Origin: Candidatus Sumerlaeaceae bacterium
Lineage (GTDB): Bacteria; Sumerlaeota; Sumerlaeia; Sumerlaeales; Sumerlaeaceae
Assembly (NCBI GenBank): GCA_051003195.1
Contig: JBPCLP010000016.1
Coordinates: 3,158-67,157, forward strand
Reading direction: 5' to 3'
DNA: 64,000 nt
Below the pieces are notes generated by a model. That model was given only the letters and a program-made list of their open reading frames with translations. It had not been told where the DNA came from and did no database searches. Shown piece after piece: positions 5,549-31,577 of this stretch (position 1 is the stretch's first letter; each line of letters opens with the position of its first letter). Made by a program: the position numbers and the translations under genes.

Positions 5549-5558
5549 GGAGCCGGCG

Positions 5559-5820
5559 CATGCATAACCCGTCCCCTCAAAACTCGTAACTGAGCTTGTG
5601 TCGAAGCATCCATAATGATAGCAAATTAATTAGTTAATACGTCAACCGTACCCGAATTCGTTCGCCATTTGTCGAAAAACTAGAAGCCGCACTGGGGCGC
5701 CTGCTCAGCCACCAAAGACAGGTCGAAAACCAAAACTCGAGCAGCCCGACGCGACCCCTGACCCCTTTGACCCGCTCAATGCATAACCTGTCCGCTCAAA
5801 GCGTCCCCTCAAAGCGCAAT
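5559..5820. repeat. Iteron-like short direct repeats (ATGCATAACCYGTCCSCTCAAA, three copies of GTCCNCTCAAA) flanked by AT-rich DNA
   Basis: I read the repeats directly at 5560-5590 and 5779-5820. AT-rich blocks lie at 5590-5660 and 5820-5945. Confidence 0.5.
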
Positions 5821-6045
5821 CAATACAACAATCAATACAATATAAGGTGTGATAAGAGATTTATTTGTATCCTGATGGTCAACCCTGCGACGAAACTTTT
5901 CGTCTAAATCAGCGGTTCTATAATTTTATCTCTATATAGGAGTTCAGACGATGTCGATCTTCAGATTTGCATGTGGTATGTGCAGAATCTTATTTGTCGC
6001 CCACCGGCCTTCCAAAGCGAATAAAACTCGAAATGAGAACGCATC

Positions 6046-6777: not shown

Positions 6778-6958
6778 GGTAATGTTGCGAAGGGGCCGTA
6801 GTCATACCGAATAACGGGGCGGTTGACGTTATCACTAATTAATTTGCTAGCGTCAGCAAATACTTCGCGACAAGATCAGTTACGGCGAAGGGTTAAGTGG
6901 CCGGGATTTGGAGTTCGAGGGGACAGGCCCTTCAAAAGCTGACCTTCTGGAGCAGCAG

Positions 6959-7789: not shown

Positions 7790-8026
7790 TGGTAGATAAT
7801 TTCAATTATTTGAGAACGCTGGTGTCCGGTTGATGCGCCGACCCGGTAGACGTTTACTTCATCGTGATCCATGGGCCGATTTAAAGCCGTTGCCTGAGAG
7901 ATACGCAATTGTTTTACGGGAGATTTTTTACGTGCATGTCACCTCACCGAGCGGGGTGAACCGGCGACCGTCCCCTCTGCGACGCTCGACGATCAAACTT
8001 CTCACAGAAGGCACTTAGCCCGCCCC

Positions 8027-8168
8027 TTACCACAGAGGCACAGAGACTCAGAGCTTTCACAGAGGAAAACACTTCTGCAATTTGTAAGAGTTCTTACCAC
8101 GTTATGCACAATAAGCAACTCGGTGCATACTCTGTGGCATACTCTGTGACTCTGTGCCTCTGTGGTAA
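8027..8168. repeat. Large imperfect palindrome with a 19-bp perfect inverted repeat (TTACCACAGAGGCACAGAG) plus multiple CACAGAG/CTCTGTG motif copies and a tandem GCATACTCTGTG x2
   Basis: The left arm is 8027-8053 and the right arm is 8142-8168, within an AT-rich intergenic region. I read it directly. Confidence 0.6.
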
Positions 8169-8479
8169 AATACGTTAATATTTTTCCGAATTTGCTTGTT
8201 GCCCAGCCTGACACGTCGAGGCAAATTCACAGGGACGCGTACCGCGAATGCCCGGGTTGTTCGGTGCGGCACGCGGTGACGCACTCCCAGGGCGGCGTGG
8301 GATTTTTGGTCGCGTGCGTGGTCGTTTCGCCGGGTTGAATGGATCAGACGCGGGGTGCGACCTGGCGCGAGGGTGGTAATTCATTAACCCCCAAGGAAGC
8401 GGAGGAGAAGTTCCGGGGCGGTTGCTCTGCGAACCTGGCAAATTCGCAGGTGATGCGTAAAAGCGGGGGACCCCAACAG

Positions 8480-8914
8480 CTACAATCCCCCGCAAAGGCC
8501 CTGGTACTGCAGAACCAGCGCCGCCAGGGCGATGCCGCAACAGGAGTGCAGGAAGTCCACACGCCGGAATTGCCGGGTTCGGCTACGCAACTGGTGAAGC
8601 TCGTCCAGCAGCGCCGCGATGGCGCACAAAGTAGCAATGATAGCTGCGGGCACGGCATCAAACCTCAGTTGCGCGTGAGCCCACAGGGCGTCGTACAACC
8701 AATACAGTACCAGGAACAATCCACCAAACTCGAAGTAATGTCCGGCTGCGCGGATTTTGCCGTGGTGGCGGTCCAGCAAAGTGAACAGCCGGGGGTGGTT
8801 GCGCATCCGGTCGATGATCGCCTGCGTTTGCGCGCGGCCAAATTTCCCTGTGCCCAGGTACCAGATCACGACGATCATCGCGCCGAGCGCGGCGAGTGGA
8901 AGTAGTGCATGCAT
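8480..8914 (-). CDS. VanZ-like family membrane protein
   Basis: It has four predicted TM segments. It carries the KIRAAGHYFEFGGLFLVLY and LLDELHQLRSRTRQF...D...G motifs that are characteristic of the VanZ family. Confidence 0.55.
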   Translation of the reverse strand: MHALLPLAALGAMIVVIWYLGTGKFGRAQTQAIIDRMRNHPRLFTLLDRHHGKIRAAGHYFEFGGLFLVLYWLYDALWAHAQLRFDAVPAAIIATLCAIAALLDELHQLRSRTRQFRRVDFLHSCCGIALAALVLQYQGLCGGL

Positions 8915-9005
8915 TAACGTGCGATGCGTGCGTGCAGTCTTCGATCATCGCAACGGCGAAATCGTTGAGCAGTTTTTGGCTTAATGGGAGATGCGACGGT
9001 TACAG

Positions 9006-9692
9006 TCAGCGTGCACGGCGCGTTTTGCCGGTTTGCTTGCGCGTATCTGTGGTCGCGGGTTCGACAAACTCGACTTTGATAAGATCTGGATTGCCCGGTG
9101 GGCGCAAGGATGTTGGTTCGGGTTCCGGCGTACTCGTGTCCACGGAAGCGGTTGCGGCCGACTCGTCGCCGTCCGTCCGTGTGCTGCGCCCGATGATCGG
9201 CGGGGGTTCCGGGCCTTGTGCGTTCGTGCGATTTCGCTGAACGTTGTCCATCGCGCGGTCACGCCGGTACGTATGGTTGGAACTGTAGACGTCACCCGTC
9301 AGGTCGGGGATCGGGTTTGGAGCCACGGTATCCACGATTTCCTGCAGTAGATCGTCCGGCCGACGATTCGCACGCTTTGCGGCATCACGTACCCATGAAC
9401 GGAACCGCTCGGGTGCAGCCAGGCGTACGGTCTGGTAGTCGTTCAGCCGGTGCTCATCCACGTAGTCTTTGATGGCGAGCTTCACCATCTCGAATTCCAG
9501 CCCGGGCTCTTTGGTTTTCGCGGCCTCAAGACGCGCTTTCGAAATCTCAGCGTCCAGTGTACCAAGCGAGATGACGCCCTTCGAGTTCAGGTAGGGATCG
9601 ACAATGACGACTTGCCCGTGCGTGACGTGAACTGGGGTGACGAAGATGAGGATGCCAACGGCGCGGAATGCAATGATGTTTGCGCGAATCAT
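9006..9692 (-). CDS. Hypothetical membrane-anchored protein with Pro/Thr/Glu-rich C-terminal tail
   Basis: An internal Met (MIRANIIAFRAVGILIFVTPV, a single TM segment) is the likely start. Its ATGA overlaps the upstream gene stop. No family was recognised. Confidence 0.4.
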   Translation of the reverse strand: MIRANIIAFRAVGILIFVTPVHVTHGQVVIVDPYLNSKGVISLGTLDAEISKARLEAAKTKEPGLEFEMVKLAIKDYVDEHRLNDYQTVRLAAPERFRSWVRDAAKRANRRPDDLLQEIVDTVAPNPIPDLTGDVYSSNHTYRRDRAMDNVQRNRTNAQGPEPPPIIGRSTRTDGDESAATASVDTSTPEPEPTSLRPPGNPDLIKVEFVEPATTDTRKQTGKTRRAR

Positions 9693-10012
9693 GATAGCTT
9701 TTGCTGCTTCGCCGCTTTCATCGCAGCGATCTCCATCTCGATCATCTGGCATACCGGCACTGAGGTCGTTCGGCGCGCGCATGAGCCCAGCGTACCGAGC
9801 CAGTAGGCGGCCGCATCCCGGCATCCCTCACCCTGCACGATGAAACTGCGCGCGCTATCCAGGACGTTGGACGTGCTGGCCGAATCGACCCGGTCGCAGG
9901 CCTCGTGCAACTTTCGAGCGAGTTCCACAAGGTCGCCGTGGACCTCGAATCCGCCGGTACTCACTTTGAGTGCTCGCTCATGGGTTGCCTGAAGATAGTG
10001 TACATCACTCAC
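9689..10012 (-). CDS. Hypothetical protein (107 aa), translationally coupled to the downstream membrane protein
   Basis: This is an ORF whose stop overlaps the start of the 9006..9692 gene. No family was recognised. Confidence 0.35.
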   Translation of the reverse strand: MSDVHYLQATHERALKVSTGGFEVHGDLVELARKLHEACDRVDSASTSNVLDSARSFIVQGEGCRDAAAYWLGTLGSCARRTTSVPVCQMIEMEIAAMKAAKQQKLS

Positions 10013-10355
10013 GCCCTTGTGACGCAGGAAATGTAAGGTAGTCGCGATGCCTTAGGCTTGAGTCTGGCGTGTTTGTGCGACGAAGGCGGGACGTACTCCC
10101 ACACGCATTAACCCATAGACTAGGCATTTTATAGAGGTTATCACATTGAGTTTACACATTTTATGTTGACGTCCCTCCCTTCATGGGAGAGCAAATAATT
10201 TACTCTTTAACCGGTCTAAGAAGTTACCTGCTACCCGAAAGCTGGCAAGGGGTGGTGATCGGATTCAGGGTCAGGGCCATTTCTGGTCGCTGGTGGGCGG
10301 TACACGGAATTACAACTCGGGTGGATACACCCCAACTTTGTTCAGGAGGTCTGAT

Positions 10356-12101
10356 GTGAAATTCAGGCATTTTATCAGTTCAGCAGCGTTGGCGATGGCG
10401 GCAATCGGTTTTGCGCCAGCCGAAGCGAGCGCGGCAACGTTTACGGCCAACCTTGGCGTTGGCTCTTCCAACGTGGGCCCCGGAGGTGATTACCCGGATT
10501 TGGCCTCGGCGGCCGAGGATTTTACAACCGGCTCGCAGGCAGTAACCGGGAACTACACTTTCTTTATCACCGGCAGCACGACCGAAACGCGGCAGATGGC
10601 ATTCGGCAAAGCGACGAACGGGTTCACAATAACCATCAAGCCGGCACCCGCAACGACGGCGACAATTACCTTCGCGTACGGGACACAGAACAACAACGCC
10701 AGCACCTTTGGGCAGACGCAGGGTTGCCCGGGCCAGATTATCGTCGGCCTTAACAACCTGGCAAATACGAACGCTGCAATCGAGGGCGGATTTGTACCCA
10801 CAAACAATTTCGTCGTAGATGGCTCGAATACGAACGGTGGTACCACCCGGGATTTGACACTTCAAACGCCGAATGCCGGGCTTATCAATAGCCGGACCGT
10901 CCACATTCTCGGCAGCAACAACTGCGTCGTGAAGAATTGCAATATCACCAATGGCGCGCAAGGCTCGCCTTCTGTGGGTGTGTTTGTCACTACGGTCAAG
11001 TTACCGATTTCCAGCACCGGTGCTCCTACTACGGTAGCCAGTCCGCTGAATACCGTTATCGATAACAATCTGATATCGGCAAGTGGCAACGGGTCCGCCG
11101 CCGGCATACTGTTTAACGCCTTTTACGATGGGCAGCTCAATACAACGAACTTCCCCGCGGCAGGCAGCGGCGCGGCTGGCTATGTAATCAGCAACAATAC
11201 GGTAGTTGGCCGCAACCGTGGTATTGCATTAAGCCTGGGGCTGAGTGGTACGATCACCAGTAATACAGTCAGTGCGGGTAACAGCTCGTCGGCATACAGT
11301 GGTGTTGGCACATCGGGCATCGCACATATCAACAGCTTTAACAGCACCGGCTGGACCATCGATATTACGAAGAACTGGATTACGTCGCTTGCCGGAACCA
11401 ACACGGGTTCGGGGCTTGGCGCAATTGCGCTGGGTGTTGCGGCACAGGGCGCCGGCACCTACAACGTGTCCAACAACATGATGGCGGGCTTCACGAACGG
11501 TGCCGGCAATAATCATCATCACGGAATTTTCTGCCGAGCAAACGCTTCGGATTATAATCTGCGGCACAACTCGATCAACGTCTCGAACACGAGCGCCACG
11601 GCTGCGACGGCCGATTTTGTTGCGGCGATCCTTATCGAATCGACTGCAAGAACCGGCATCTCGCGAGTACACAACAACCTGGTCCGACTGGCGCAGGATA
11701 ATGGGATCGGGATCAGTCACGTTACCAATGACACCACTAAACTCATCACCGATGGCAATGACATCGCGCTGGTTGGTGCTACTACAAACTTCGGCCGATT
11801 TGGCGGCACCAATGCTGCAACGCTCGCAGCGTGGAAATTGGCCACCAACAACCAGGAAGCTCTTGGTCAAACCGTTGATCCAGCGGCTACAACGGGTTCG
11901 AAGTGGGTTTCAGCTGACGCAATCGATCTGCATTTTGTACCGATTCACACTGTTCCAGTCGGGATCAGCGGTGGCGTTCCAGTTGCAACAACGGGAATCG
12001 CAACCGACATCGACGGTCAGCCGCGCAGCGCTTCTGCTCCGCTGCCAGGAGCCGACGAAGTCATCGCAGGCACAGGTGTCCTGGAGTGGCAGTTGTTCTA
12101 A
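10356..12101 (+). CDS. Secreted Ser/Thr/Asn/Gly-rich right-handed beta-helix repeat protein (adhesin or pectate-lyase-fold like)
   Basis: A GTG start at 10356 follows AGGAGG at 10345-10350. The signal peptide is KFRHFISSAALAMAAIGFAPAEASA. The composition is repetitive (NNxxxG/T-rich). Confidence 0.55.
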   Translation: MKFRHFISSAALAMAAIGFAPAEASAATFTANLGVGSSNVGPGGDYPDLASAAEDFTTGSQAVTGNYTFFITGSTTETRQMAFGKATNGFTITIKPAPATTATITFAYGTQNNNASTFGQTQGCPGQIIVGLNNLANTNAAIEGGFVPTNNFVVDGSNTNGGTTRDLTLQTPNAGLINSRTVHILGSNNCVVKNCNITNGAQGSPSVGVFVTTVKLPISSTGAPTTVASPLNTVIDNNLISASGNGSAAGILFNAFYDGQLNTTNFPAAGSGAAGYVISNNTVVGRNRGIALSLGLSGTITSNTVSAGNSSSAYSGVGTSGIAHINSFNSTGWTIDITKNWITSLAGTNTGSGLGAIALGVAAQGAGTYNVSNNMMAGFTNGAGNNHHHGIFCRANASDYNLRHNSINVSNTSATAATADFVAAILIESTARTGISRVHNNLVRLAQDNGIGISHVTNDTTKLITDGNDIALVGATTNFGRFGGTNAATLAAWKLATNNQEALGQTVDPAATTGSKWVSADAIDLHFVPIHTVPVGISGGVPVATTGIATDIDGQPRSASAPLPGADEVIAGTGVLEWQLF

Positions 12102-12127
12102 ACTTCCCGGCAAACTGAAAACACAAT

Positions 12128-12170
12128 CCCGGCGGCGCACTGCACCAGCAGGCGTCGCCGGGTTTTTTTT
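12128..12170 (+). terminator. Rho-independent terminator
   Basis: The GC stem is CCCGGCGGCGC...GCGTCGCCGGG, followed by T8. Confidence 0.7.
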
Positions 12171-12201
12171 CAGTTATTACTACTCGAACGACGCGAAGGA
12201 A

Positions 12202-12369
12202 ATGCTGCAGTTCGACCTGGACGCCGAAAACGAAACGATCCAGAATTACCGGGATCGCATCCAGCAGGCGGAGGCGTTACAGGAATATGCCCTGAGCGAG
12301 GAACTGCGAGAGATCATCCGGCAGGAGCAGGACCACAAGATTGACCTTGAGGCCGCCCTGGGCATATAA
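12202..12369 (+). pseudogene. Bacterioferritin/ferritin-like C-terminal fragment (55 aa), probably a gene remnant
   Basis: ETIQNYRDRIQQAEALQEYALSEELREIIRQEQDHKIDLEAALG resembles Bfr helices C and D with the ExxH diiron motif. The N-terminal half is missing. Confidence 0.4.
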
Positions 12370-12461
12370 ATCGGATACCGTCACCACCTCACGCCGATCT
12401 ATCGACATCGGCATCGCTTTCCATCTGAACGCGATGCCGATATCGACACACCAACGGCGTG

Positions 12462-12758
12462 TTATAGAAACCTCAGCTTGCCCTTTCGCACGATTCCCAT
12501 CAGCGCAAGCGCACGGATGAACACGACAACCGGCCCGTCTTGCGGAATTTCGCCGAACGTATTGTCCAGGCCGTCGATTTCGGTCTGCAGTTTTTTGCGG
12601 AGCGGACCGCATAGTTCTTCCACGAGGTTCGATGCAGCTTCTGCTTCTACTTCGTACAGCGGTCCCAACTGGCTTCGGCAGTCCGCGTACGCTGCGGCCA
12701 TCTTAAATACTCCAGTGGGAGCCGCCTCCCACTTAAGAACCGGCATCTTCGGAAACAT
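12462..12758 (-). CDS. Hypothetical small protein (98 aa) with hydrophobic C-terminus
   Basis: An AGGAG RBS lies 8 nt upstream of the ATG at 12758. No family was recognised. Confidence 0.35.
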   Translation of the reverse strand: MFPKMPVLKWEAAPTGVFKMAAAYADCRSQLGPLYEVEAEAASNLVEELCGPLRKKLQTEIDGLDNTFGEIPQDGPVVVFIRALALMGIVRKGKLRFL

Positions 12759-12923
12759 ATACTGGGCTCCTGAGTAACGATGCGGGCTACTAGGGGCAAT
12801 GTGCGTGCCAACGAAATCCACAGGCGGTTTATGCCTGTCATCCCGCCGCCATTTAGTAATTGCACGCGCGCAACGCGGGTGAAAGAAACTGCTCCGCATT
12901 TGGGCGCTAGAAAAGGGCTAAGC

Positions 12924-14888
<1,965 letters not shown>

Positions 14889-15017
14889 TCGCGAGTGCGG
14901 ATTGCGGAATGCAGATTGCCGAATACAGGCACACCTGACCCCTTTCGCAGAAGCAGCTGAATTGCCTCGGGCGGCTTTACTGGCACTTCCTGGCTACATC
15001 GTGCCCGAAAATTACGA

Positions 15018-17669
15018 ATGAAAATGGCTGAGCGGCCGGACCTCAGCAGGTCTGCTGGAAGTGCGGGTTTCTGGTGCGGTGGTGCCGTGGTTGCACTGAT
15101 CGGCGTTGCTGCGGCATTGCTTCTGCACGGAGGCGGCAGTTACTACTTCGGCGGTGCGGATTCGGATCTCGTCAGCCAGTTCTACCCCTGGCGGGTGTTC
15201 GTAAAGCGGTGGCTGGACCGCGGAGTGATTCCACTATGGGATCCGCACGTGTTCGGCGGCTACCCGGTGCTCGAGACGCAGCAGATGTTTGCGCTGAATC
15301 CGATTCGCCTCCTCTTCACGTTTCTGCTGACCCCACGCATCAGCCTGCTGGCAGAGGCCACGGGTTATGTCGCGATTGCCGCGCTTGGCAGCTGGATCAG
15401 CCTGCGTCGCTTCATGCGATGTTCGGCGCCCGCGGCGATGGTTGGAACGGTGGTGTATGTGTTCGGCGGGCTTTTCACCATTCGTGTCGGAGCGGGACAC
15501 TTCACAGTGCTTGCGGGTTTGTGCTGGTGGCCGCTGGCAATGGGCCTCGCGTTTAACCTGGCGAGAGCTCTGCGGCCGCGCTTTCAGCCGTTCGGCCTGG
15601 GGGCGCTGATCCGCAATTCGTGGGGCAACTCAACGTCGCGAAACGCAGTGCTGCTGCTGGGTGTTGTGAACGCAATGGCGCTCCTGGCAGGCGGACCCCA
15701 ATACGTCGTCTATCTTTTCTGGATGGAGTTGCTGGTCGTTGCCGCAGTTTCACGCGTACGCATTGCAGCTATGATTGCCAGTGGCTTTGCCTGGGCAATA
15801 GCGCTATGCCTGTCCGCGCCACAGTGGTTGCCCACGCTGTCGTACCTGCCGTTTTCAGGGCGTGGAGAAAGCGGCAGCAGTTCGATGCTGGGACCCGCCG
15901 TGATGGATCTCATGGTCATTGGTCTCGAAACGCTGATGCCGCATCCGCTTGGCGATGACTTGGCGCAGCCGCATCTCTACGAAAAAGCCGCATGGGAAAC
16001 ATGCTTGTATCCCGGTACTCTGGCGCTGGTGCTTACGTGTGTGCTTCTCTGGCGCACGGCTGGTAATTTGGGCCGGCTTGGTATCGTGGGTGTGAAGAGG
16101 CAAATGGCTTCGCCTCCCCGGATGCTGATGGACGCATCAGCGGTCGCTCCTTCCGATGAAAGACAGCTCGAGGAGCAGCAGCCTTTGCAGTCTCGCGAGC
16201 TTTCGTATGCCATGGCACGTCGGCTGTTGTGTGCGATTCTGATCTTTCTCGGGCTGTATCTGATGATGGGCTGGTGGTTGCCTGGGTTTGCGAGTTTTCG
16301 TGAACCGATCAAGGCCCGCGCGATTGTCGCTTTGGGAATGGCATGGGCCGCCGCCGTGGAGTTCCACACGCTGCTGCAATTGTGGAAACACTTCCGCAGG
16401 CGCAGACTAAGAATCTGCATTCCCTACGTCACTGCTGCAGCGATCATCGCGGCGTGCGCTCTCTGGTTCTGGTGGCGGGCGTCGCAGCCGGGTTGGTTTG
16501 AACAACTGTTGCGTCGGTTTCCGAATCCTTTCGACCCCACTGCTTCGAAATTCTTTGGCGCTGTCCTCGCAAATCCAGAACTTGGCAGCCGGCCTTTTGC
16601 GCATGCCGCGGCGTGGACCGTCATGTTTGCCATCGCAACGGGCGCTGGTGTTCTCGTTGCCATTGCATCGCGCCGCGCCGCACATGGAATTGCAGTGGTA
16701 GCGTTGCTGGCACTCTGTTGCGGCGACCTCGGGGCGTCACACTGGATCGCCTTTTATGCACGGCACGAGTTTGAAAAGGTCGAGCTTCAGCCAGTTATCC
16801 GCAATGCCCTGAGGACGAGGCTGGCAGAGTCTTCATCCCGCAAGGAAGTCCCGTGGCGCGTGATGCTGCCGCCGCAGGCAGCCAACCAATCCCACCACGT
16901 GGAAGGACTTTTCGAGACGGGCGGCTACGATCCGCTGATGCCGGCGCGTGCGAACTCGCGAGTCGTCATTGAGCCGCTCGTTCCGGAGGGAGGCATCAGA
17001 CCGCCGATGGACCTGGTACACACCGCAATCGGAAGGCGCGTGGACTGTTCCGGATATTTCGACTCAGTCGATTCCCCTGCAACCTCATCCCCGTGCCACC
17101 GGGTGGCGGGCCGCGGGCAAATCGTAGACGTTGAGCGCAAGGTAACTATTGGAGTTCCCGGGCGCGCAGAGACATTCGGCCCAAGAACCGACAACCTGAA
17201 TTATGTGGCCCAGGGCACCGCGGAGTGGCTGTCGGGCGAGCCGCCGGAAGTGGGGGCGGAAGTTCGCAAACAGGTCGCGGCAATCCATGTGCTGCCCACA
17301 GCCCCGGATGGACATGGGACTGTGGCAGGCGAAACTCTGGATGTGAGCGGGCCGTCGGCGCCACATCTGATGCGCTTGCACACAAAACTTAAAGCCCCGG
17401 CGTTGCTGGTGTACCGTACCACGTGGTTGCCCGGGTGGAAGGTGAAGGTGGACGACGGACCCTGGAACACCGCCCTTTGCGCCAACCGTTGGATGGTCAG
17501 CACAATCCTGGATGCGGGCGAGCACCAGGTGGAGTTTCGCTATACGCCGGTTGGGCTTCGCTTCAGTTTGTTGCTCGCGGCGCTCGCGTGGCCCGGACTT
17601 TTGACAATGTTGGCACTAAATGCATTATTTTCCGAAGCTTTGCGGCGCAAAGTTATATCCCCTACTTAA
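15018..17669 (+). CDS. YfhO-family membrane protein (GT-C-like putative glycosyltransferase)
   Basis: The N-terminal motifs DSDLVSQFYPW...PLWDPHVFGGYP and many TM segments match the YfhO family. Confidence 0.55.
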   Translation: MKMAERPDLSRSAGSAGFWCGGAVVALIGVAAALLLHGGGSYYFGGADSDLVSQFYPWRVFVKRWLDRGVIPLWDPHVFGGYPVLETQQMFALNPIRLLFTFLLTPRISLLAEATGYVAIAALGSWISLRRFMRCSAPAAMVGTVVYVFGGLFTIRVGAGHFTVLAGLCWWPLAMGLAFNLARALRPRFQPFGLGALIRNSWGNSTSRNAVLLLGVVNAMALLAGGPQYVVYLFWMELLVVAAVSRVRIAAMIASGFAWAIALCLSAPQWLPTLSYLPFSGRGESGSSSMLGPAVMDLMVIGLETLMPHPLGDDLAQPHLYEKAAWETCLYPGTLALVLTCVLLWRTAGNLGRLGIVGVKRQMASPPRMLMDASAVAPSDERQLEEQQPLQSRELSYAMARRLLCAILIFLGLYLMMGWWLPGFASFREPIKARAIVALGMAWAAAVEFHTLLQLWKHFRRRRLRICIPYVTAAAIIAACALWFWWRASQPGWFEQLLRRFPNPFDPTASKFFGAVLANPELGSRPFAHAAAWTVMFAIATGAGVLVAIASRRAAHGIAVVALLALCCGDLGASHWIAFYARHEFEKVELQPVIRNALRTRLAESSSRKEVPWRVMLPPQAANQSHHVEGLFETGGYDPLMPARANSRVVIEPLVPEGGIRPPMDLVHTAIGRRVDCSGYFDSVDSPATSSPCHRVAGRGQIVDVERKVTIGVPGRAETFGPRTDNLNYVAQGTAEWLSGEPPEVGAEVRKQVAAIHVLPTAPDGHGTVAGETLDVSGPSAPHLMRLHTKLKAPALLVYRTTWLPGWKVKVDDGPWNTALCANRWMVSTILDAGEHQVEFRYTPVGLRFSLLLAALAWPGLLTMLALNALFSEALRRKVISPT

Positions 17670-19166: not shown

Positions 19167-20123
19167 CTAGTTGCGTTCATGGAACTCGCCGCGCGCTGTC
19201 CGCAGGTTTCTGGTTCCATCAGGCTGAATAAAGGCATCTAGCGAAACCAATGGTAGGATCTCTAGGACGGACTTCTTACCGTACCATAATCCAATCTTGC
19301 CGTAACAGCCAGTTACCCGAAAAAATACAAAGACCGGTTTGGCTGAAAGAAGTGCTGTTGGAACGTTGACTTGGGTTGTATAGCCTGTATCCACTGCCAT
19401 CGATGTCTCTGGTGGAAATACTTGATTGTTTGTTGCACCAGCACCACAAGATTGGATGAATAAACCGTCTTTGGGGCCAGGATTTGCCAGCTTCAGTTGG
19501 AGCTGCCATGATGTATTCGTTAGCATGGTCGCATCGAGAGCAAGCAGGGGTCCAGTGGTGGGTAACAATTCAAGTTCGGTAAACGGAAAGCTAAGCCGTC
19601 GCACACTAGTTGTAAGCTCTACAGCAGAGAACGAGGTCTTTGAATCAGTAGAGCTGATCGCGAGCAGTTGAACCCTATCCCGAACTGCCCCAAACAAAGT
19701 CCTTACGTGAGAAAGCTTAGGGAGGGACGGTTCTCGTGGCCAGAGGACCACGGACCGCTGCCAACGCCCCCAAATTGGGTCGGTCGTAAAGCGGTCGGTG
19801 TGTTGAAGATCAATATCATATTTTGATGTATAATAGCCATCCTTACTAAACCGCAATTCTAGCTCGGCTAGTTTTGTCTGCTTAATTTCAAAGGTTCCAT
19901 TGATAGCTAAATCGTATGAGTCGTCATTATTAAGCCCAAAAGTGCGTACTCCGCAAGTCACTTCCGTAAGTAGTGTGCCAGACGAATCACGCACGTCACC
20001 AAAAGCGTGAATAGATTTACATAGAGGCTGAGTGGTTAAGACCCCGTGGTCTGGATGAATGAGCGCCGCAATATTTCCGCTCAGCAAACACAAACTAGCC
20101 GAAAGCAGCCACGTCGCGTTCAT
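19167..20123 (-). CDS. Hypothetical secreted protein (318 aa) in a low-GC segment
   Basis: The signal peptide is MNATWLLSASLCLLSGNIAA. No family was recognised. GC is about 45-50%. Confidence 0.5.
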   Translation of the reverse strand: MNATWLLSASLCLLSGNIAALIHPDHGVLTTQPLCKSIHAFGDVRDSSGTLLTEVTCGVRTFGLNNDDSYDLAINGTFEIKQTKLAELELRFSKDGYYTSKYDIDLQHTDRFTTDPIWGRWQRSVVLWPREPSLPKLSHVRTLFGAVRDRVQLLAISSTDSKTSFSAVELTTSVRRLSFPFTELELLPTTGPLLALDATMLTNTSWQLQLKLANPGPKDGLFIQSCGAGATNNQVFPPETSMAVDTGYTTQVNVPTALLSAKPVFVFFRVTGCYGKIGLWYGKKSVLEILPLVSLDAFIQPDGTRNLRTARGEFHERN

Positions 20124-23903: not shown

Positions 23904-26900
23904 ATGTCCATGGCGCCCGCGCAAAGTTATACGCTAACCAGCATCGTTGATAACCGTGGTGAAAACACGCTCTGCAATGCCATCGATCAAATTACGGAGA
24001 ACGGACGCGAGCTGTGGATTGCCACCGCCTTCTTCTCACTCGATGCCCTTAATATGGTTGGCAAGAATCTGCAATCCGCTGAGCGCATTCGTCTTCTCTT
24101 CGGCGACGACGCCAGCGCGAAACAGCGTAACGCGCTGCTTGCCGCGATGCGTAACCGTTCCGATGCCGACCTGCTGCGCCAGCGCGATGTGGACGCGCTG
24201 CTTCAGGGGCTTCGGCGCGCCTTACAGCTCATCAACGACGGAAAGCTCGAAGCCCGCGTGTACACACGCGAAAAGTTTCACGCTAAGCTGTACATTTCCC
24301 ACCGTACCGGCTACCCGCCAGCATCCAGTATTGTAGGCAGTGGCAATTTTACGCGCTCGGGCCTGACACAGAATATCGAGCTCAACGTCCGCCTTATCGA
24401 GGACCAGACAGAGAAGCTGATTTCCTGGTACCAGGATCGCTGGGACGAAGCAGAAGAGGACGACGTAACTCTTGTCTTAAAAGCCGAAATTGAACGCCAG
24501 ATTCGCCTCTACGCTCCGTACGCCATTTATCTTAAAGCGCTGCTTACATGGGGAGACTATGTACAGGGCCGCGATCCCTTAAAGCAGCTTCAGATCTTAC
24601 CATTGCTTGACCCGCACCAGGAGCACGCATACCGGCAGGCGCTTCGCATCCTCCAGCGGGAACCCGGCGTCATGATTTGCGACGGCGTTGGCCTTGGTAA
24701 ATCCTTCGTCGCCCTGGCTCTGATGGAACACTGGCTGTCCGAAGGATCGCGTGTACTGCTGGTTGCCCCCAAGGCTATCCTGAAAAGCTCGTGGGAAGGT
24801 TACCTGAGGAGGTATCTATCCAGGTACAGCCGCGGTTTCACAAACCTCCACTGTAAGCCCATGACCTGGTTTGGCTTCGACCCTGAAGAGGATTCTAACG
24901 ACCTTGAGCAACTAGTCGAATACGCCACCCAGGCGGACGTGATCATTATCGACGAGAGTCACAATTTTAGAAATTCTGCAAGCCAGCGGTACGAGAACCT
25001 TTACCGCGTTGTTGCCCCAAACGAGCGCGGCAGAAAGAAAATCGTCCTTCTGACGGCCACTCCAATCAACACGCGTTACGAGGATCTATCCAGCCAGTTT
25101 CAGATCCTCACCCATGACACGGGCGCAATTTCAGGCATCCCCCGGCTGCAAATCAATAAGCTGGCGCGTAACAAAGATCGCGAGATCATGAAGAAGGGCG
25201 AGCCGCTGGAGCAAGGCGATTTCCTTGACCTTCAAGGCGTCATGCTGGAAGACCTGCTTGGCATCGCTCTCAAGGCTGTCGCCATTCAACGCTCCCGTAA
25301 AACCTGCAGGGGACTTGCTGATGCCGCAGGGCGACACCTGCGTTTTCCTAAACGACAGAAGCCGACAGAAGTATCGTACGAACTTGGTTACGGGCACGAG
25401 TCCCTGATTAAGGAAGCCAGCCTTCGCTTCAAAGAGTTGGGCGCATACATTGCAGCCTATCGCGACGAAGTGACGGAGGCTTCTGAAAAAGATCGTGCAG
25501 TAAAGAAGACCTTCGGTAAGCAACCGCAGCACGGACTCAAATTCAGCGGCTACCTTCCGAATTTGTTCTCACGCAATAAGGCGATTTCAAATCGCCAGGC
25601 GCAGGTGGAAGCATTCCTGGCAGCCATGGTGTTCGTGAACGTGATGAAACAGCTGGAAAGTTCAACGCCCGCGTTTCAGTCCATCATCGAGTCTCTGGGT
25701 CGTGGCCTTGCGTTGCGGCTGCGCCATTTCTGTGGGGACGAAGAAAAGGTGCAGGCTGCACTGCGCCGACATGAAAAGTGGGTCAAGCTACCCGCAAACG
25801 TTGAGCCCGACGATCAAATTTCAGATGAACCTGAAGACGCCGTCGCGGATGAAGCCAGCGGTGGTGAAACAGACGATTATATCTGCCGCGAAGAACGTCG
25901 CGCGATTAAGCGTCTCAAGGCCCTCGGTTTCAGCAATGAAACACACGACGTCGCGCGGTGGCGAAACGATATTCTTAATGATCTCGAACACCTGCAAAGC
26001 ATTCACGATAAATGTCTTCATGCACGCGAAGAGCAGGACGCGAAGCTTGTCGAAATCTCAAAGCACGTTAGGGAGCAGCGTTCGCTCGGACGCAAAGTGC
26101 TGATCTTCAGCCAGAGCCGGCTCACGGCGCAATATATCCAGTCCGGGCTTGAAGCAATCCTCGGCGAAAAAGTCGCAATGGTCACCTCGGAGATCGGCGG
26201 CGATATACGCGCACGCATCCTGAACGCTTTTTCGCCGCATTATAATGATTTGCACACGCGTAATATGAAGCCGCTCGACGAATTGAACATCCTTGTTTCG
26301 ACGGACGTGCTTGCCGAAGGCGTCAACCTGCAGGAAGCCGGCTGCGTTCTAAATTACGATCTGCACTGGAACCCAACCCGGTTGATCCAGCGGATCGGTC
26401 GCGTAGACCGTCGCCTCAAACAGGGTGAACCCGATCACGAGTTCGACATTCTGAACGTCTTCCCGCCAAAAGCAATCGACGAAGTGATCTCCCTGGTCGA
26501 CACCGTTGAGCATCGCAAGCGCAAGATCAGTCACCTGCTTGGCATTGATGTTTCATTCTTCAAGGCGACCGATGAGGAAGACACTCTCAAAGAGTTCAAC
26601 CGGCTTTACGAGGGCGAAGAGAGTCCCCGAGACAAGCAGCTCATCCAGTATGTGCGCCAGGTGGAGTTAAGCAGCGAGCAGAAGGCAATCGCTGAAGCAC
26701 TCCCGCCAGGTGCGCTCGGCGTCTGGTCCGGGGCTCCGTGTGATGGCGTGTTTGCCCTGTTTTTAATTGTGTGGCGCAAACCTGAGGCTGCCCCTGAGCA
26801 CTGGAATCCGGAACAGACCATACCCGAAGCCGATCTGAAGCGCTTCCGCTCACTTATAGGAGCCCCCAAATTGCTGCTTGGCCGTTCAGGACCCGAAATT

Positions 26901-27092
26901 GAAACCGACGCTCCTTCCGTGCTTGAGCTACTCGCGAAGGTCAGCCCGCAAGAAAAGAGCGGGTTCCCTCGCGACATTGAAGCGCTTCAAAAGAATCTCA
27001 AGCGCCTGCGTTCCGCTGCGCTTTCCTCCATTCCCGACCGTACGCAGAACGTAACCGTGGAGCTCGTGTGCTGGATGGAACTTCAAACCTGA
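23904..27092 (+). CDS. Fused phospholipase-D-like nuclease + SNF2-family (SF2) helicase
   Basis: The PLD HKD motif is HAKLYISHRTGY..IVGSGNFTRSGL. Helicase motif I is ICDGVGLGKS, motif II is IIIDESHNFRN, and motif VI is NPTRLIQRIGRVDRR. Confidence 0.85.
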   Translation: MSMAPAQSYTLTSIVDNRGENTLCNAIDQITENGRELWIATAFFSLDALNMVGKNLQSAERIRLLFGDDASAKQRNALLAAMRNRSDADLLRQRDVDALLQGLRRALQLINDGKLEARVYTREKFHAKLYISHRTGYPPASSIVGSGNFTRSGLTQNIELNVRLIEDQTEKLISWYQDRWDEAEEDDVTLVLKAEIERQIRLYAPYAIYLKALLTWGDYVQGRDPLKQLQILPLLDPHQEHAYRQALRILQREPGVMICDGVGLGKSFVALALMEHWLSEGSRVLLVAPKAILKSSWEGYLRRYLSRYSRGFTNLHCKPMTWFGFDPEEDSNDLEQLVEYATQADVIIIDESHNFRNSASQRYENLYRVVAPNERGRKKIVLLTATPINTRYEDLSSQFQILTHDTGAISGIPRLQINKLARNKDREIMKKGEPLEQGDFLDLQGVMLEDLLGIALKAVAIQRSRKTCRGLADAAGRHLRFPKRQKPTEVSYELGYGHESLIKEASLRFKELGAYIAAYRDEVTEASEKDRAVKKTFGKQPQHGLKFSGYLPNLFSRNKAISNRQAQVEAFLAAMVFVNVMKQLESSTPAFQSIIESLGRGLALRLRHFCGDEEKVQAALRRHEKWVKLPANVEPDDQISDEPEDAVADEASGGETDDYICREERRAIKRLKALGFSNETHDVARWRNDILNDLEHLQSIHDKCLHAREEQDAKLVEISKHVREQRSLGRKVLIFSQSRLTAQYIQSGLEAILGEKVAMVTSEIGGDIRARILNAFSPHYNDLHTRNMKPLDELNILVSTDVLAEGVNLQEAGCVLNYDLHWNPTRLIQRIGRVDRRLKQGEPDHEFDILNVFPPKAIDEVISLVDTVEHRKRKISHLLGIDVSFFKATDEEDTLKEFNRLYEGEESPRDKQLIQYVRQVELSSEQKAIAEALPPGALGVWSGAPCDGVFALFLIVWRKPEAAPEHWNPEQTIPEADLKRFRSLIGAPKLLLGRSGPEIETDAPSVLELLAKVSPQEKSGFPRDIEALQKNLKRLRSAALSSIPDRTQNVTVELVCWMELQT

Positions 27093-30000
27093 TGATTGAC
27101 CCGCAACTACTTCACGACGTACACGACCGCGATTCGCTGGTAGCACTACTCAAGAAAAGCGAAACCCAGCAGGGGCTCGGCTGGCCGGTGGATCCCGACG
27201 CGCCGTTCCAGTTTGAACCAGAGATCGCAAAAGGCATCAAAAGCGGTTTAAACGTAGCTATTTCGCGATTGGTTCCGGCCTCTTCGGAAGATAAACACCT
27301 GGTGCTACTGGCGGAATTCCCACAACCGTATGTCCGACGCGACCTGCGCGAACTCCTCGCCTCCCTGCGCAAACATATTCGGGACACCAAGCGCTTCGCC
27401 GACCACACCGGAATCGGCGATACCGTATTCATTGTCGCAGGCCCGGCATACGACGACGTGCGCTTTGTTCTGTTCGAGGAACGTGAACGCCGGCTCCCGC
27501 GCATCCGCTCCTTCGGCTGGAGTCGCGCGCACATTGGGCGCACCGTTCTTACGCACAACCTGGGGCGTCTCGTATGGAGCAGCCGTGAGAAATGGGAATC
27601 TGCCTGGGACGTCGAGGCGCTCACCGATGAATTCTACCAGGAGTTCGTCAAAGTTTTCGACGCGGTAAAAGCCGCAACCACTCATCCCGGCAACAACGAA
27701 AAAAAACATGCCTATGTCCAGCAGCTCCTCAATCGCATGCTGTTTATCGCATTTATCGAACGCATGGGCTGGCTCAAGCTGCCGTGGCCTGACGCTACCA
27801 AACCTACCACCGACTATATGCACGCGCTCTGGATACGGCACCAGCAGGAAGAGGATCCGGCGGCATACTACAAAAGTGTCGTAGAACCATCCCTCGCCCC
27901 GATATCCTTCAACTCCGTTTTAGGTAAACTCTTCTTCGATGGGCTAAATCGCGCCGGCGGGATTGCCCACGGCCACACGCTATACAAGCTTTTGGGTGAC
28001 GTGCCATATCTTGACGGCGGACTGTTCGAAGAGGAAGCCACGCTCGACGTTCCTGGCGTGTCAGTGCAAGATGAAGTCTTCGATCTGATACTCGGCGATA
28101 GACGCCCTGGCTTTGACGGCGGCCTCTTCCGCCGCTTTAACTTTACCGTTACGGAATCCACACCGCTCGACCAGGAAGTCGCAGTCGATCCGGAAATGCT
28201 TGGCAAAATTTTTGAAAGTATTATTTTGGATGTGGAACGTCACAGCACGGGCACGTATTACACACCACGTCCTATTGTCGAGTTCATGGTAAACGAGGTG
28301 CTCAAGGACTACCTTACCGAAAAAGGGTTAGCAGCGGATAAAGCCGCACTCCTCGTGGATGAGGACAACGTGGAGTCCGACGAGTTGTCATTCAAGCCTT
28401 CCGAGATGCAGGATACCTTGAACTTGCTGTTTGAAGTGCGTGCCGTTGACCCTGCCTGCGGATCGGGCGCGTATCTACTTACGCTACTGCAGCGGCTGTT
28501 CGAACTGGTGGACCGGCTGGAAGTCGTGCACGACAAAGGACGCAATACTGACCCGCGACATTTTTATAATACAAAACTGCGGCTGTTGCACCGATGCATA
28601 TACGGTGTCGACATCAGCGAAATTGCCATCCGTATTGCGCGCCTACGCCTATGGTTGTCGCTGGTCATCGAAAACAAAGGGATCATACCCGAGCCGCTGC
28701 CGAGTTTCGACTTTCTGATCATGTGCGGTGATTCACTGGCGTCGCCAGTGGAACAAAACGAGGCAGGATTAGCGTATCCTCATAATACGATTCAGGACTA
28801 TACGGTCCTTAAACAGCGATGGTTCCACCCATCCAACAATACACGTCCAGAACGAGAAGTTCTTACCCGCAAACGTGCCGAAATAGCAGCTGCATTTGAG
28901 CATGAGCTCGCAAGCAGTAGGTTCAGAGCCGCTGCGCAAAATCCATTCGATTGGGAGGTCGAGTTTGCCGAAGTCTTTGATCCGAACTTTGACAATTCAC
29001 CGGGGTTCGATATCATCTTAGCAAATCCCCCCTACGGTATTGCCGTCGAGTCACAATACCGAGTCTCGATCAACAGCAAGGAATCTTACGCAGCATTCTT
29101 AGCATTGGCTCACGCACTTAGTACGCCCGGCGGAACGTGCTCGTTTATCGTACCCACCTCTTGGCAAACTGGAGAACACTTTTTCCAATTTAGAAGTTGG
29201 TTGTTCGGAAACAACATCGTGCATTCAGTGGTCAATCTTCCCTATGATATGTTTGCAGCTGCCTATGTTGATACGTGTATTGTTACATTCCGTGCCAGAG
29301 CGCGAACAGTATCCGGTAGAGAGATATCGATAGCTGTTCTTCCAAAGCATGCGGAGTATAGGCGGGAGGATATTGCTTCAGCTCTACGGAAGTTACCCTT
29401 TAAAGCCATTGAGTCAGATTCCCGCCTTCGAATCGTCGTAAATCCAGACGCCGTCGACTTGATAACTAAGGTCAGTGTAGGTTCGCGCTTAGATAGTAAG
29501 GCAGTCGTAAAGCGCGGGATCGAGGCCTACAACTATAAAATTGCCCTGAAGCCGACCACGCCATCCATGTTGCCTTTTTATGAAGGTACGGTGCGACGCT
29601 ATTACGCCGGTTCGCTCATGGAAGACAAATGGGTCCAGCCAAAACCTAGGGAGGTTGAGCTGCACTGCGGGGAGCGCATTCTTTTAAGACGTTTGGTCAG
29701 CCGTTCAAATCGGCTGATGGCAGCCCGAGTTAACTTCGATGCAGTCGTTAAAAAAGATCTGTATATAGTTAGAACGGAAGGTACGGAGATGTTGCTATTC
29801 CTGCTTGGATTGCTGAATTCGTCATTGTGGTCCTACTTGTATTTGTCACGTTCAGCGTCTGCTCAGAAGGATGACTTCCGTCAAGTGACACTCGAAGGTA
29901 TCCGCGGATTACCTCTGCCAGAGAGCAGAGCTCAGAGGGGTGCAATAGCGGAACTTGTCTGCGCGATCGAGCGCAGAGTAGCTGCAAATGAGTCATATGA

Positions 30001-30100
30001 CCTGCTTGATGCGGAACTCGACACGCACATCTACGCTTTGTATGGAGTCTCCAATGAAGAACAAAGCGCCGTACTAAAATATCTGGATACGCGTGGATAA
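27092..30100 (+). CDS. PglX/Eco57I-family N6-adenine DNA methyltransferase with C-terminal target-recognition region
   Basis: Motif I is VDPACGSGAYLL and motif IV is ILANPPYG. Upstream helical-domain blocks (LLNRMLFIAFIERMGWL, DPEMLGKIFESI, GTYYTPRPIV) are typical of MmeI/PglX-type enzymes. The start ATG at 27092 overlaps the helicase stop (TGATG); a GTG at 27068 is an alternative. Confidence 0.85.
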   Translation: MIDPQLLHDVHDRDSLVALLKKSETQQGLGWPVDPDAPFQFEPEIAKGIKSGLNVAISRLVPASSEDKHLVLLAEFPQPYVRRDLRELLASLRKHIRDTKRFADHTGIGDTVFIVAGPAYDDVRFVLFEERERRLPRIRSFGWSRAHIGRTVLTHNLGRLVWSSREKWESAWDVEALTDEFYQEFVKVFDAVKAATTHPGNNEKKHAYVQQLLNRMLFIAFIERMGWLKLPWPDATKPTTDYMHALWIRHQQEEDPAAYYKSVVEPSLAPISFNSVLGKLFFDGLNRAGGIAHGHTLYKLLGDVPYLDGGLFEEEATLDVPGVSVQDEVFDLILGDRRPGFDGGLFRRFNFTVTESTPLDQEVAVDPEMLGKIFESIILDVERHSTGTYYTPRPIVEFMVNEVLKDYLTEKGLAADKAALLVDEDNVESDELSFKPSEMQDTLNLLFEVRAVDPACGSGAYLLTLLQRLFELVDRLEVVHDKGRNTDPRHFYNTKLRLLHRCIYGVDISEIAIRIARLRLWLSLVIENKGIIPEPLPSFDFLIMCGDSLASPVEQNEAGLAYPHNTIQDYTVLKQRWFHPSNNTRPEREVLTRKRAEIAAAFEHELASSRFRAAAQNPFDWEVEFAEVFDPNFDNSPGFDIILANPPYGIAVESQYRVSINSKESYAAFLALAHALSTPGGTCSFIVPTSWQTGEHFFQFRSWLFGNNIVHSVVNLPYDMFAAAYVDTCIVTFRARARTVSGREISIAVLPKHAEYRREDIASALRKLPFKAIESDSRLRIVVNPDAVDLITKVSVGSRLDSKAVVKRGIEAYNYKIALKPTTPSMLPFYEGTVRRYYAGSLMEDKWVQPKPREVELHCGERILLRRLVSRSNRLMAARVNFDAVVKKDLYIVRTEGTEMLLFLLGLLNSSLWSYLYLSRSASAQKDDFRQVTLEGIRGLPLPESRAQRGAIAELVCAIERRVAANESYDLLDAELDTHIYALYGVSNEEQSAVLKYLDTRG

Positions 30101-30153
30101 GAATGACCGGTCGTGATTTACAGGACTGGCTCAGCCAGCGCGAGCGGTAGCGG

Positions 30154-30744
30154 ATGGCCGGAAACAACATATTCTGCCTCGAAGGTGATTGGTCAGGCAA
30201 CCTGAAGAAGCCAAATTCCGTTCGGCCGATACTGGAACTGCTTTCCAGGACGGAACCGTATGCTCCAAAGCATATCTATCGTGGACTGGGTACCGTAGAA
30301 GAATTTGAATACTACCTGCGCGAGTGGAGGAAAAAGCAGTACCGTGACTACCCCATTCTTTATCTCGCGTTCCACGGCGACTGCGGGGAGCTTTGCGTTG
30401 AGGCAACGCGTGGTGGGAGTATACGCGTTAGCCTGGATGATCTGGAGACGCTACTGCAAGGCAAGTGCCACCGGCGTATGATTCATATAGGCGCCTGCGA
30501 TTCCGCAATGTGGCATGGCAACAGGGTGCAGACGTTTCTTAGAACAACCGGTGCTGTGGCGCTGATGGGCTACGAAGCCCAGGTCGACTGGACGGTCTCG
30601 ACTGCTTTTGAGCTACTTCTATTTGACTGCATCCAAGAATGGTCGATGACTAAGCACGGTGCTAACGCGATAAAGAAGCGCATGAAGGCCCACTACCCGG
30701 ACATGGTAAGAAAGCTTGGGTTTAAGGTCGTGGTACGTAAGTAA
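30154..30744 (+). CDS. Hypothetical protein with clan-CD (caspase-like) His-Gly/Ala-Cys dyad pattern
   Basis: The hydrophobic strand ILYLAFHGDCG and a later strand IHIGACDSA fit the caspase/gingipain catalytic-dyad spacing. It is co-directional with, and 53 nt downstream of, the MTase gene. Confidence 0.35.
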   Translation: MAGNNIFCLEGDWSGNLKKPNSVRPILELLSRTEPYAPKHIYRGLGTVEEFEYYLREWRKKQYRDYPILYLAFHGDCGELCVEATRGGSIRVSLDDLETLLQGKCHRRMIHIGACDSAMWHGNRVQTFLRTTGAVALMGYEAQVDWTVSTAFELLLFDCIQEWSMTKHGANAIKKRMKAHYPDMVRKLGFKVVVRK

Positions 30745-31149
30745 TTTTTCGCCGGGACGCGGCGACCGTCGACGATCAAACTTTCTTACTGAAGCTCTCA
30801 TCAGCATGGCACGACGAGCAACGGCCCTCAGCCGGAGTTGCAGCCACGCACCAGCGCACGTTCGTCCCAAAATCTTTTTCGACTTTATTGGAGTTAGCCC
30901 ACCCTAAGGTGACGCCAGGGAAGTGACACGTCCCCCCAAACTGGTGTAAACGTGACCACGTAGTAAAGCTGAACACGTTCTTTGACAACTATGCAGCCCG
31001 AACGCCGTGACCGACGGCAGAGGGACCTCTGCGCCCAATCCACGTGGCATTTTGCGTCCCTGCGACTGGCGGAAAAAGCCGCGCATCCGGCAAGCCCCAC
31101 TACACAGGGCACCACTGGGCCCTGGCGAATTCTTACGCGAGGATTACCG

Positions 31150-31505
31150 TTTTTCAAGTGGCGAAATTACCCCACTTGAAAAACTTGAATACATGTCCAA
31201 CCCTTTCAAGCTTCTACACCTCAAACTTGAAAAAAAACTTGAAAAACTTGAAAACTTGAAAGCGTCCACCACCACCGCCCGCGCCCTCGCACCCTCACAT
31301 CATTCCAGCATATTCGTGTGCATTCGTGGATAAAAACTACCGCCGCGCCTTACTGCCGTCCTTGCCGCCGACGATTCCGAGTCCGGACGGAAATCAAAGG
31401 GCGAAATTACCCGTTTTCGCCTGTTTGATTTATCTGAAACACTTTCAAGCTTCCGCGCCGCAAGTTTGAATTCCTTTGAAAACTCTTTGAAAACTTTGAA
31501 AAGCC
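31150..31505. repeat. Two roughly 100-bp direct repeat units (GCGAAATTACCC...CTTTCAAGCTTC...) each followed by (A)AACTTGAAAA tandem repeats
   Basis: I read them directly in the 830-bp intergenic tract. Confidence 0.6.
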
Positions 31506-31577
31506 TCACCGCAGTCTGACTAACCGGGGACGACTAACCGGGCAGCTACACTTACATGACTACCTGCGGGATCACGA

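Follow-up and report, generated by a model that had tools for sequence, protein, structure and literature searches.

Type ISP restriction enzymes have been described as 'half Type I': their domains follow the order nuclease-motor-gamma-class methyltransferase (MTase)-target-recognition domain (TRD), their recognition site is asymmetric, and they cleave when two enzymes collide after ATP-driven translocation (PMC3874165). In MANTIS (Gao_RL, BREX-related type 2) a DUF499 AAA+ ATPase, MtsA, and the small MtsB accompany a methylase, which cannot act without the two of them, and an HKD-helicase, MtsD, which is the proposed effector and a dimer with one PLD active site; the same work describes SauUSI, a protein joining HKD to a superfamily 2 (SF2) motor, as a restriction motor (bioRxiv 10.64898/2026.09.23.753747). 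HKD endoDNases have been called established restriction factors (PMC12839542), hence this kind of system is already recognized. Here we analysed a stretch of 64,000 nt from a Candidatus Sumerlaeaceae bacterium (contig JBPCLP010000016.1; hereafter the window), in which three adjacent genes encode a fusion of an HKD nuclease with a SNF2-type helicase (gene 1), an N6-adenine DNA methylase with its own TRD (gene 2) and a small DUF6642 protein (gene 3); coordinates are given in Table 1. Genes 1 and 2 probably constitute a self-contained two-subunit ATP-dependent restriction-modification (R-M) system, resembling a Type ISP or Type I enzyme that has been split in two and in which an HKD nuclease takes the place of the PD-(D/E)XK or Mrr nuclease. 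The pair is a widespread uncharacterized family; restriction by an HKD nuclease joined to a motor is known, and what would be new is the minimal two-gene arrangement.

The neighbourhood of the helicase was surveyed in 85 loci, five from close relatives (67-75% identity) and 80 at about 28-32% identity, which span Armatimonadota, Chloroflexota, Planctomycetota, Verrucomicrobiota, Acidobacteriota, Poribacteria, Proteobacteria and one archaeon; open reading frames (ORFs) were called up to 7 kb from the helicase and then clustered. A large cluster of Eco57I/PglX/MmeI-like methylases (median 1087 aa) was found on the same strand as the helicase in 75 of these loci, and in each of the 10 loci without it the contig breaks off within 2.3 kb after the helicase. 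Members of this cluster lie downstream of the helicase in 84 of 86 cases, the gap between the two genes is often shorter than 70 nt or negative, and precomputed gene neighbourhoods agree with the pairing, which is near-obligate and has a fixed order. No other cluster reached more than 6-7 of the 85 loci as a third conserved partner. Thus, with near-obligate pairing and no other conserved partner, the core of the system consists of two genes. Genes that do recur near the pair are DUF3800, YhcG/DUF1016 and ORF6N, which are typical passengers of R-M operons.

In the window the sequence TGATG joins the stop of the helicase gene (TGA, 27090-27092) to the start of the methylase gene (ATG, 27092-27094), with one base common to both codons, and from this overlap genes 1 and 2 are translationally coupled; an alternative GTG start of gene 2 at 27068 would give a protein of 1010 aa. 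Gene 3 begins after a gap of 53 nt from the methylase stop, and no terminator-like site was found by a terminator scan between any of the three genes. The three co-directional and closely linked ORFs that the initial annotation had described, with their overlap and their gap, were confirmed at the coordinates of Table 1. That annotation had also proposed that the three genes form one module, and that they would be a chance neighbourhood if their homologs were never co-localized elsewhere. The helicase-methylase pair does recur, whereas the trio was never found elsewhere; because DUF6642 is absent from the other helicase loci, a conserved trio is rejected by that same yardstick. Hence the description of the locus as a three-gene unclassified module was only partly right, and the caspase-like gene is probably a passenger and no subunit.

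Variants of the common arrangement also occur. In L004 (8001-19213) a UvrD-family helicase lies between the HKD-SNF2 gene and the methylase, several resolvase genes lie upstream, and transposase genes, a SLFN_AlbA_2 gene and a second Eco57I/TaqI_C methylase lie downstream. On a Nostoc plasmid (L093, NZ_CP117770.1, 2021-12858) a distant homolog of the helicase (27% identity) occurs in reversed order, after a TaqI_C methylase and two hypothetical genes, and is adjoined by genes for an EVE-domain protein, a deoxynucleoside kinase and a viperin-family radical SAM protein.

The helicase protein carries the Pfam domains PLDc_2 (27-175), ResIII/DEAD/SNF2-rel_dom (235-403) and Helicase_C (720-836), and its best library model was PADLOC C3a139, 'HKD+Snf2' (2.3e-42). 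In a 2018 list of genes that neighbour type III CRISPR cassettes this cluster appears along with C3a159, a 'methyl transferase' cluster (PMC6546367), and the two clusters may represent the same helicase-methylase pair as seen in defence islands. Across 40 full-length homologs (44-75% identity) the nuclease residues H126-x-K128, G145-S-G-N148, E159 and N161 are invariant, and so are the motor motifs, namely Walker A GxGK266S, D350-E-x-H353, the SNF2-type HWNP at 821-824 and motif VI, Q829-R-x-G-R833-x-x-R836; the closest solved sequence to the motor is that of RapA. With only one HKD motif per protein, two copies would have to pair to form an active site. Pfam found no separate target-recognition domain in the helicase protein. 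The family comprises more than 600 protein clusters at E <= 1e-10, of which the best 120 are mostly full-length with 43-75% identity, and 571 helicase stretches were confirmed in one-genome-per-species GTDB contigs. The initial annotation had read this protein as a fusion of DrmC and DrmD, which was overstated: the combination of PLD and SF2 domains also occurs in SauUSI and in MANTIS MtsD, and the best match is the 'HKD+Snf2' model.

The methylase matched the Pfam families Eco57I (1.7e-24), N6_Mtase, MmeI_Mtase and TaqI_C, and its structure model, with a predicted local distance difference test score of 88, consists of four parts. A comparison of 48 homologs showed no variation in motif I, DPACGSG (453-459), or in N645-P-P of motif IV, and conservation of Y648 in at least 90%. 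Motif I precedes motif IV and the TRD is C-terminal, which is the gamma-type order, and the folds nearest to the model are those of PglX, CamA, M.BseCI, LlaBIII (Type ISP), DrdV and MmeI, relatives in which a C-terminal TRD recognizes an asymmetric site. The motifs for nuclease, ATPase and methylase activity are intact and conserved in the pair, and the three activities are predicted from them.

At the other end of the methylase, the N-terminal domain shows no invariant column before R150 in the same 48 homologs, conservation of its acidic candidates E75, D110 and E129/E130 reaches only 50-73%, and there is no conserved Lys at the candidate catalytic positions. Because this domain is without conserved catalytic residues, the pair has a single nuclease, the HKD domain of the helicase. 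For the same reason we rejected the idea that the methylase is a complete Type IIG enzyme carrying its own nuclease. Its aa 1-146 may be a coupling or assembly domain. The TRD is the most divergent part of the protein: alignments with the closest homologs stop after the first 65-81% of the methylase, and its column conservation is 0.33-0.44, while the homologs are otherwise 50-67% identical. It also has the lowest GC content within the module (49.3%). Such divergence is as expected if restriction specificity is exchanged. In the closest homologous pairs (L001-L003, 11256-15083; L005, 10258-14160; and many further homologs) the methylases measure ~1,250-1,310 aa and end in a SLFN_AlbA_2 (Schlafen/AlbA_2) domain; the window methylase is without this domain, and the DUF6642 gene comes next instead.

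Table 1. Features of the locus in the window, and contexts in which DUF6642 genes stand next to R-M or defence genes in other contigs
Sequence	Feature	Position	Strand	Basis or remark
Window	Gene 1, helicase gene (R subunit): single-HKD (PLD-family) nuclease fused to SNF2-like SF2 ATPase/translocase	23904-27092	+	1062 aa; ORF and translation; Pfam, PADLOC C3a139, homologs
Window	Gene 1, HKD/PLD nuclease domain	23982-24428 (aa 27-175)	+	Pfam PLDc_2, RE_NgoFVII
Window	Gene 1, SF2/SNF2-like motor	24606-26411	+	N-lobe aa 235-403, long insert, C-lobe aa 720-836
Window	Gene 2, methylase gene (MS subunit): gamma-class N6-adenine DNA MTase with its own TRD	27092-30100	+	1002 aa counted from ATG; start overlaps helicase stop
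Window	Gene 2, N-terminal alpha/beta domain	27092-27529 (aa 1-146)	+	Secondary structure of model
Window	Gene 2, helical domain	aa 150-450	+	Structure model
Window	Gene 2, catalytic Rossmann domain	28442-29296 (aa 451-735)	+	Motif I DPACGSG, motif IV NPPY; Pfam
Window	Gene 2, TaqI_C-type TRD and C-terminal helices	29321-30097 (aa 744-1002)	+	Pfam TaqI_C
Window	Gene 3, DUF6642 gene: stand-alone minimal caspase/CHAT-fold protein (clan CD-like)	30154-30744	+	196 aa; Pfam DUF6642 8e-22
L171, L096, L104	hsdM-hsdS-DUF6642			Directly downstream, 16-nt gap
L119, L123	hsdM-hsdS-hsdR-YgjP-DUF6642			
L149	hsdR-hsdM-hsdS-DUF3644-(104 aa)-DUF6642-AAA_15/AAA_21/DUF3696 ATPase-(351 aa)-EVE+HNH-(1257 aa, no Pfam)	3-16567		
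L147	Patatin-like protein, DUF6642, then ATPase			ATPase of the same type as in L149
L131	DUF6642 after PglZ-domain gene			
L174	DUF6642 between HNH, Schlafen-ATPase, HicB, ORF6N and transposase genes			
L009	DUF6642 in defence-island setting			Weak

By analogy with the described enzymes, the methylase-TRD protein (MS) would read a short asymmetric site and methylate one adenine with S-adenosylmethionine, so that host DNA is marked. At an unmodified site, MS would recruit or license the HKD-SNF2 protein (R). R probably dimerizes to form one PLD active site, and it would then move along DNA by ATP hydrolysis and cut away from the site, most likely on meeting a second complex or site. We infer in the same manner that the asymmetric site is hemimethylated, that MS recruits R, that R dimerizes and that cleavage depends on translocation. 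This division of labour between R and MS is proposed because the TRD is divergent and lowest in GC, because the two genes are translationally coupled and because one locus retains R without the methylase. In that locus (L006, 7001-10535) the HKD-SNF2 gene is intact, 74% identical to that of the window and in possession of all catalytic residues; a methylase remnant of ~107-130 aa follows, and then unrelated genes. Survival of the R gene beside a methylase remnant fits an R protein that is harmless, or unable to find DNA targets, without its specificity subunit.

Among single-polypeptide enzymes, Type ISP (LlaGI, LlaBIII) has the same order of functions, and its layout and fold of a gamma-class methylase with a C-terminal TRD are present in gene 2. 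The functions are however divided here between two overlapping genes, the Mrr/PD-(Q/E)xK nuclease is replaced by HKD/PLD, the motor bears SNF2-type signatures (HWNP, nearest to RapA), and the methylase has an extra N-terminal domain of ~146 aa. Type I systems have a separate HsdS and a PD-(D/E)xK nuclease in HsdR, whereas the present pair has no HsdS gene, its TRD lies within the methylase and its nuclease is HKD and not HSDR_N. The two-gene logic is that of Type III, but Type III combines a beta-class Mod with a Res that has a C-terminal PD-ExK, in contrast to the gamma-type order and the N-terminal HKD found here. Type IIG/IIL (MmeI-like) enzymes differ in their conserved N-terminal PD-ExK nuclease, of which the window methylase has none. 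SauUSI (Type IV) and CglI/NgoAVII likewise need ATP and cut with an HKD nuclease, two copies of which build one PLD active site. SauUSI has a TRD of its own and cuts modified DNA, and its likeness to R is by domain architecture only; CglI divides PLD domain and motor between two subunits and has a conventional Type II methylase.

Three points weigh against a two-subunit R-M system. First, all curated defence models (PADLOC, NCBIfam) score the helicase weakly, and because of this the R-M assignment rests on architecture and context and not on membership in a characterized family. Second, the MANTIS methylase needs an AAA+ loader and a small co-factor to bind DNA, and neither has an equivalent here; without a loader, the simple scheme in which MS recognizes and R cuts may skip a step. 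Loading on DNA would then differ from that of MANTIS and possibly proceed via the N-terminal domain of the methylase or via the helicase. Third, our literature searches for a named two-gene HKD-SNF2/methylase system turned up no paper that describes this family or experiments with it, but only the DUF499 systems (Hma, BR types, MANTIS), CxC-ABC/Pbe and the 'HKD+Snf2' cluster. The initial annotation had proposed an unclassified defence module. It was right in that no described system was matched; the locus does not call for a new defence principle, and a two-subunit ATP-dependent R-M system fits better.

The place of gene 3 bears on the first alternative. The gene encodes a predicted caspase-like (clan CD) protein, in which a caspase fold carries a His-Cys dyad after adjacent central strands, and the nearest solved fold is that of the immune protease SAVED-CHAT. 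With these features and the Pfam matches, the initial domain assignments hold for all three proteins. A PDB sequence search gave chance-level matches only, no PADLOC or NCBIfam model matches DUF6642, and a full-text literature search for 'DUF6642' returned no paper. The family comprises about 1,083 clusters (50% identity, E <= 1e-10), or 1,602 at E <= 0.001, and its members are almost always stand-alone proteins of ~200 aa. In contrast to the CHAT/caspase-like clan CD proteases SAVED-CHAT and Craspase TPR-CHAT, they measure only ~200 aa and are without a sensor, TPR or SAVED domain and without a fixed partner gene. A few members (P0496 among them) bear an N-terminal XRE-type HTH_3 domain, and in L176 (5418-6639) a divergent HTH_3 gene adjoins DUF6642 beside dnaA; these fusions and this neighbour hint at a regulatory role (repressor or protease switch) rather than that of an effector.

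DUF6642 could be a protease arm of the pair: as a guard or second line of defence it would become active once the R-M complex is engaged or blocked, either at this locus or across R-M operons. An analogy is offered by EcoprrI, a Type I enzyme that holds the anticodon nuclease PrrC. The same strand, the 53-nt gap with no intervening terminator-like site and the SAVED-CHAT fold would agree with such a role. Moreover, in independent lineages other R-M operons are immediately followed by a DUF6642 gene, such genes also occur in defence-island settings (Table 1), and in homologous pairs the slot after the methylase holds other putative effectors, namely a SLFN_AlbA_2 fusion, DUF3800 or YhcG. The pairing counts tell against it: DUF6642 was found in none of the 84 other helicase loci, being present on the window's own contig only, and a helicase homolog was found in none of 85 DUF6642 loci. 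No neighbour family was present in more than 3 of 28 non-redundant DUF6642 lineages, as judged by neighbour clustering and a pooled Pfam scan of 104 neighbours. Large blast clusters of DUF6642 neighbours were dismissed, since they stemmed from spurious ORFs on contigs of very high GC content from related organisms.

Most DUF6642 contexts are housekeeping, with amidase, GCV_T, CLC channel, Bat/TPR operon and dnaA region among the many of this kind. R-M or defence-island settings account for ~7 of 28 non-redundant metagenome groups and 1-2 of 7 long contigs, and the link to R-M and defence islands is suggestive only. With the missing sensor domain and PADLOC model also to be set against it, we regard a guard effector of the R-M pair as unlikely. 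We give the same low probability to DUF6642 being a previously unrecognized minimal caspase-like effector behind R-M operons, a backup for blocked restriction, which would turn the locus into a three-part system. DUF6642 is probably co-transcribed cargo in a variable accessory slot downstream of the methylase and no core subunit, and to see it as mobile cargo is the most parsimonious view. In two unrelated lineages, L177 (141-6612) and L010 (4989-6597), a TPR protein directly precedes DUF6642; in L177 this protein closes a BatA/VWA-BatD operon, with a 19-nt gap to DUF6642. This placement may represent a second, non-defence association of the family.

A second alternative is that two independent systems happen to be adjacent, a SauUSI-like Type IV (modification-dependent) HKD-helicase nuclease and a separate Type IIG/IIL-like or orphan methyltransferase. 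SauUSI does act alone with the same PLD-plus-SF2 core, and Type IIG enzymes supply the best PADLOC models for the methylase, whose structural neighbours include MmeI and DrdV. This is nevertheless very improbable: the two genes are near-obligately together, in fixed order and overlapping, the helicase has no separate target-recognition domain by Pfam, and the methylase is no complete Type IIG enzyme because its N-terminal domain is without conserved nuclease residues.

The two-subunit R-M pair was also compared with the multi-gene defence systems that contain similar proteins. No model of DISARM, BREX, MANTIS, Dpd or Zorya scored above its curated cut-off (PADLOC, NCBIfam, Pfam), and membership in them was rejected. 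The pair resembles class 1 DISARM in combining a SNF2-type helicase, an N6-adenine methylase and a PLD nuclease, and the PADLOC DrmD and DrmMI models match partially; yet the DrmA and DrmB (DUF1998) core is absent and the PLD domain is fused to the helicase. With NCBIfam the DISARM models gave 103 bits against a cut-off of 610 (DrmD), 81 against 950 (DrmD_b) and 15 against 133 (DrmC). The resemblance of the methylase to the PglX fold of BREX is real, but the best PglX model gave 46 bits against 500, and PglZ, BrxC and BrxL were neither found among the window genes scanned nor recurrent in the 85 loci. For gene 1 the top NCBIfam match was the MtsD model NF042964, with 131 bits against a cut-off of 1100. 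An N-terminal HKD nuclease fused to an SF2 ATPase is shared with MANTIS, by domain architecture only, whereas the DUF499 loader MtsA and MtsB are absent here and in the 85 related loci. The searches against DrmC, DrmD and PglX profiles that the initial annotation had called for returned partial or weak matches, all of them below the curated cut-offs. Its view that the locus is no canonical DISARM, BREX or Type ISP system stands, since cut-offs were missed and partner genes are absent both here and in the 85 loci. Within ~8 kb and among the large ORFs of the window, we found no DrmA/DrmB (DUF1998), PglZ, BrxC or DUF499 gene. The least likely explanation of all, a reduced or partial copy of class 1 DISARM, BREX or MANTIS/Gao_RL with its remaining genes elsewhere or lost, would account for MtsD, DrmD, DrmMI and PglX being among the best-scoring curated models and for the architecture of PLD plus SF2 and N6-adenine methylase common to MANTIS, but the scores lie far under the cut-offs, and the absence of those partners here and of any recurrent one within 7 kb across 85 loci in many phyla makes the two-gene state a conserved state and no remnant.

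The surroundings of the three genes are ordinary. Flanking genes belong to metabolism and envelope (AIM24, ABC permease, GH46, Band_7, peptidase S10, GHL10), and the other large ORFs of the window encode housekeeping functions or have no assignment. The module has 53.5% GC compared with 57-58% in the 10-kb flanks, a modest reduction, and 56-63% GC at third codon positions (GC3) compared with 68-72% in neighbouring housekeeping genes. The lower GC and the adjoining repeat-rich non-coding tract that the initial annotation had pointed to are both real, and its suggestion of horizontal acquisition was borne out in that there are signs of it, GC and GC3 below those of the flanks. Promoter and terminator scans around the locus performed no better than on shuffles.

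Three further ORFs of the window, all on the plus strand, gave no Pfam family at E <= 1e-5 (15018-17669, 883 aa; 3298-5055, 585 aa; 10293-12101, 602 aa). A 318-aa ORF on the minus strand (19167-20123), also without a Pfam family, has the lowest GC of the area (48.5%) and is likewise a gene call on the Logan contig; it may be another acquired gene. Downstream of gene 3, the repeat-rich tract extends over 30745-31577 and contains a composite non-coding repeat (31149-31510) in two copies ~240 nt apart. Each copy holds a hairpin of perfect spacing, GTTTTTCAAGTGGCGAAA / TTACCCCACTTGAAAAAC or the variant GGGCGAAATTACCC...CGCC, together with a CTTTCAAGCTT box and several (A)CTTGAAAA units in a row. 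Candidate roles of this repeat are a small RNA, a protein-binding array or the end of an element. An Rfam scan (18-34 kb, E up to 0.1) and a tRNA scan found nothing that marks an island border or accounts for the repeat tract.

If the two-gene reading is true, the pair would be the simplest known restriction arrangement of an HKD nuclease with a SNF2 motor, present in hundreds of species of many phyla. It is possible that the HKD-SNF2 protein and the methylase-TRD protein represent a distinct and widespread class of ATP-dependent R-M systems, which does the task of MANTIS or DISARM without a loader ATPase. DUF6642, repeatedly placed in R-M operons and defence islands, is for this reason a candidate, open to testing, for a new module of defence or regulation that relies on a protease. 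The pair itself would be a stripped-down model for the coupling of site recognition to a motor nuclease in MANTIS, DISARM and BREX, and it poses the question of how a PglX/MmeI-like methylase loads on DNA without an AAA+ loader. Moreover, the variability of the TRD suggests a large pool of new specificities within this family.

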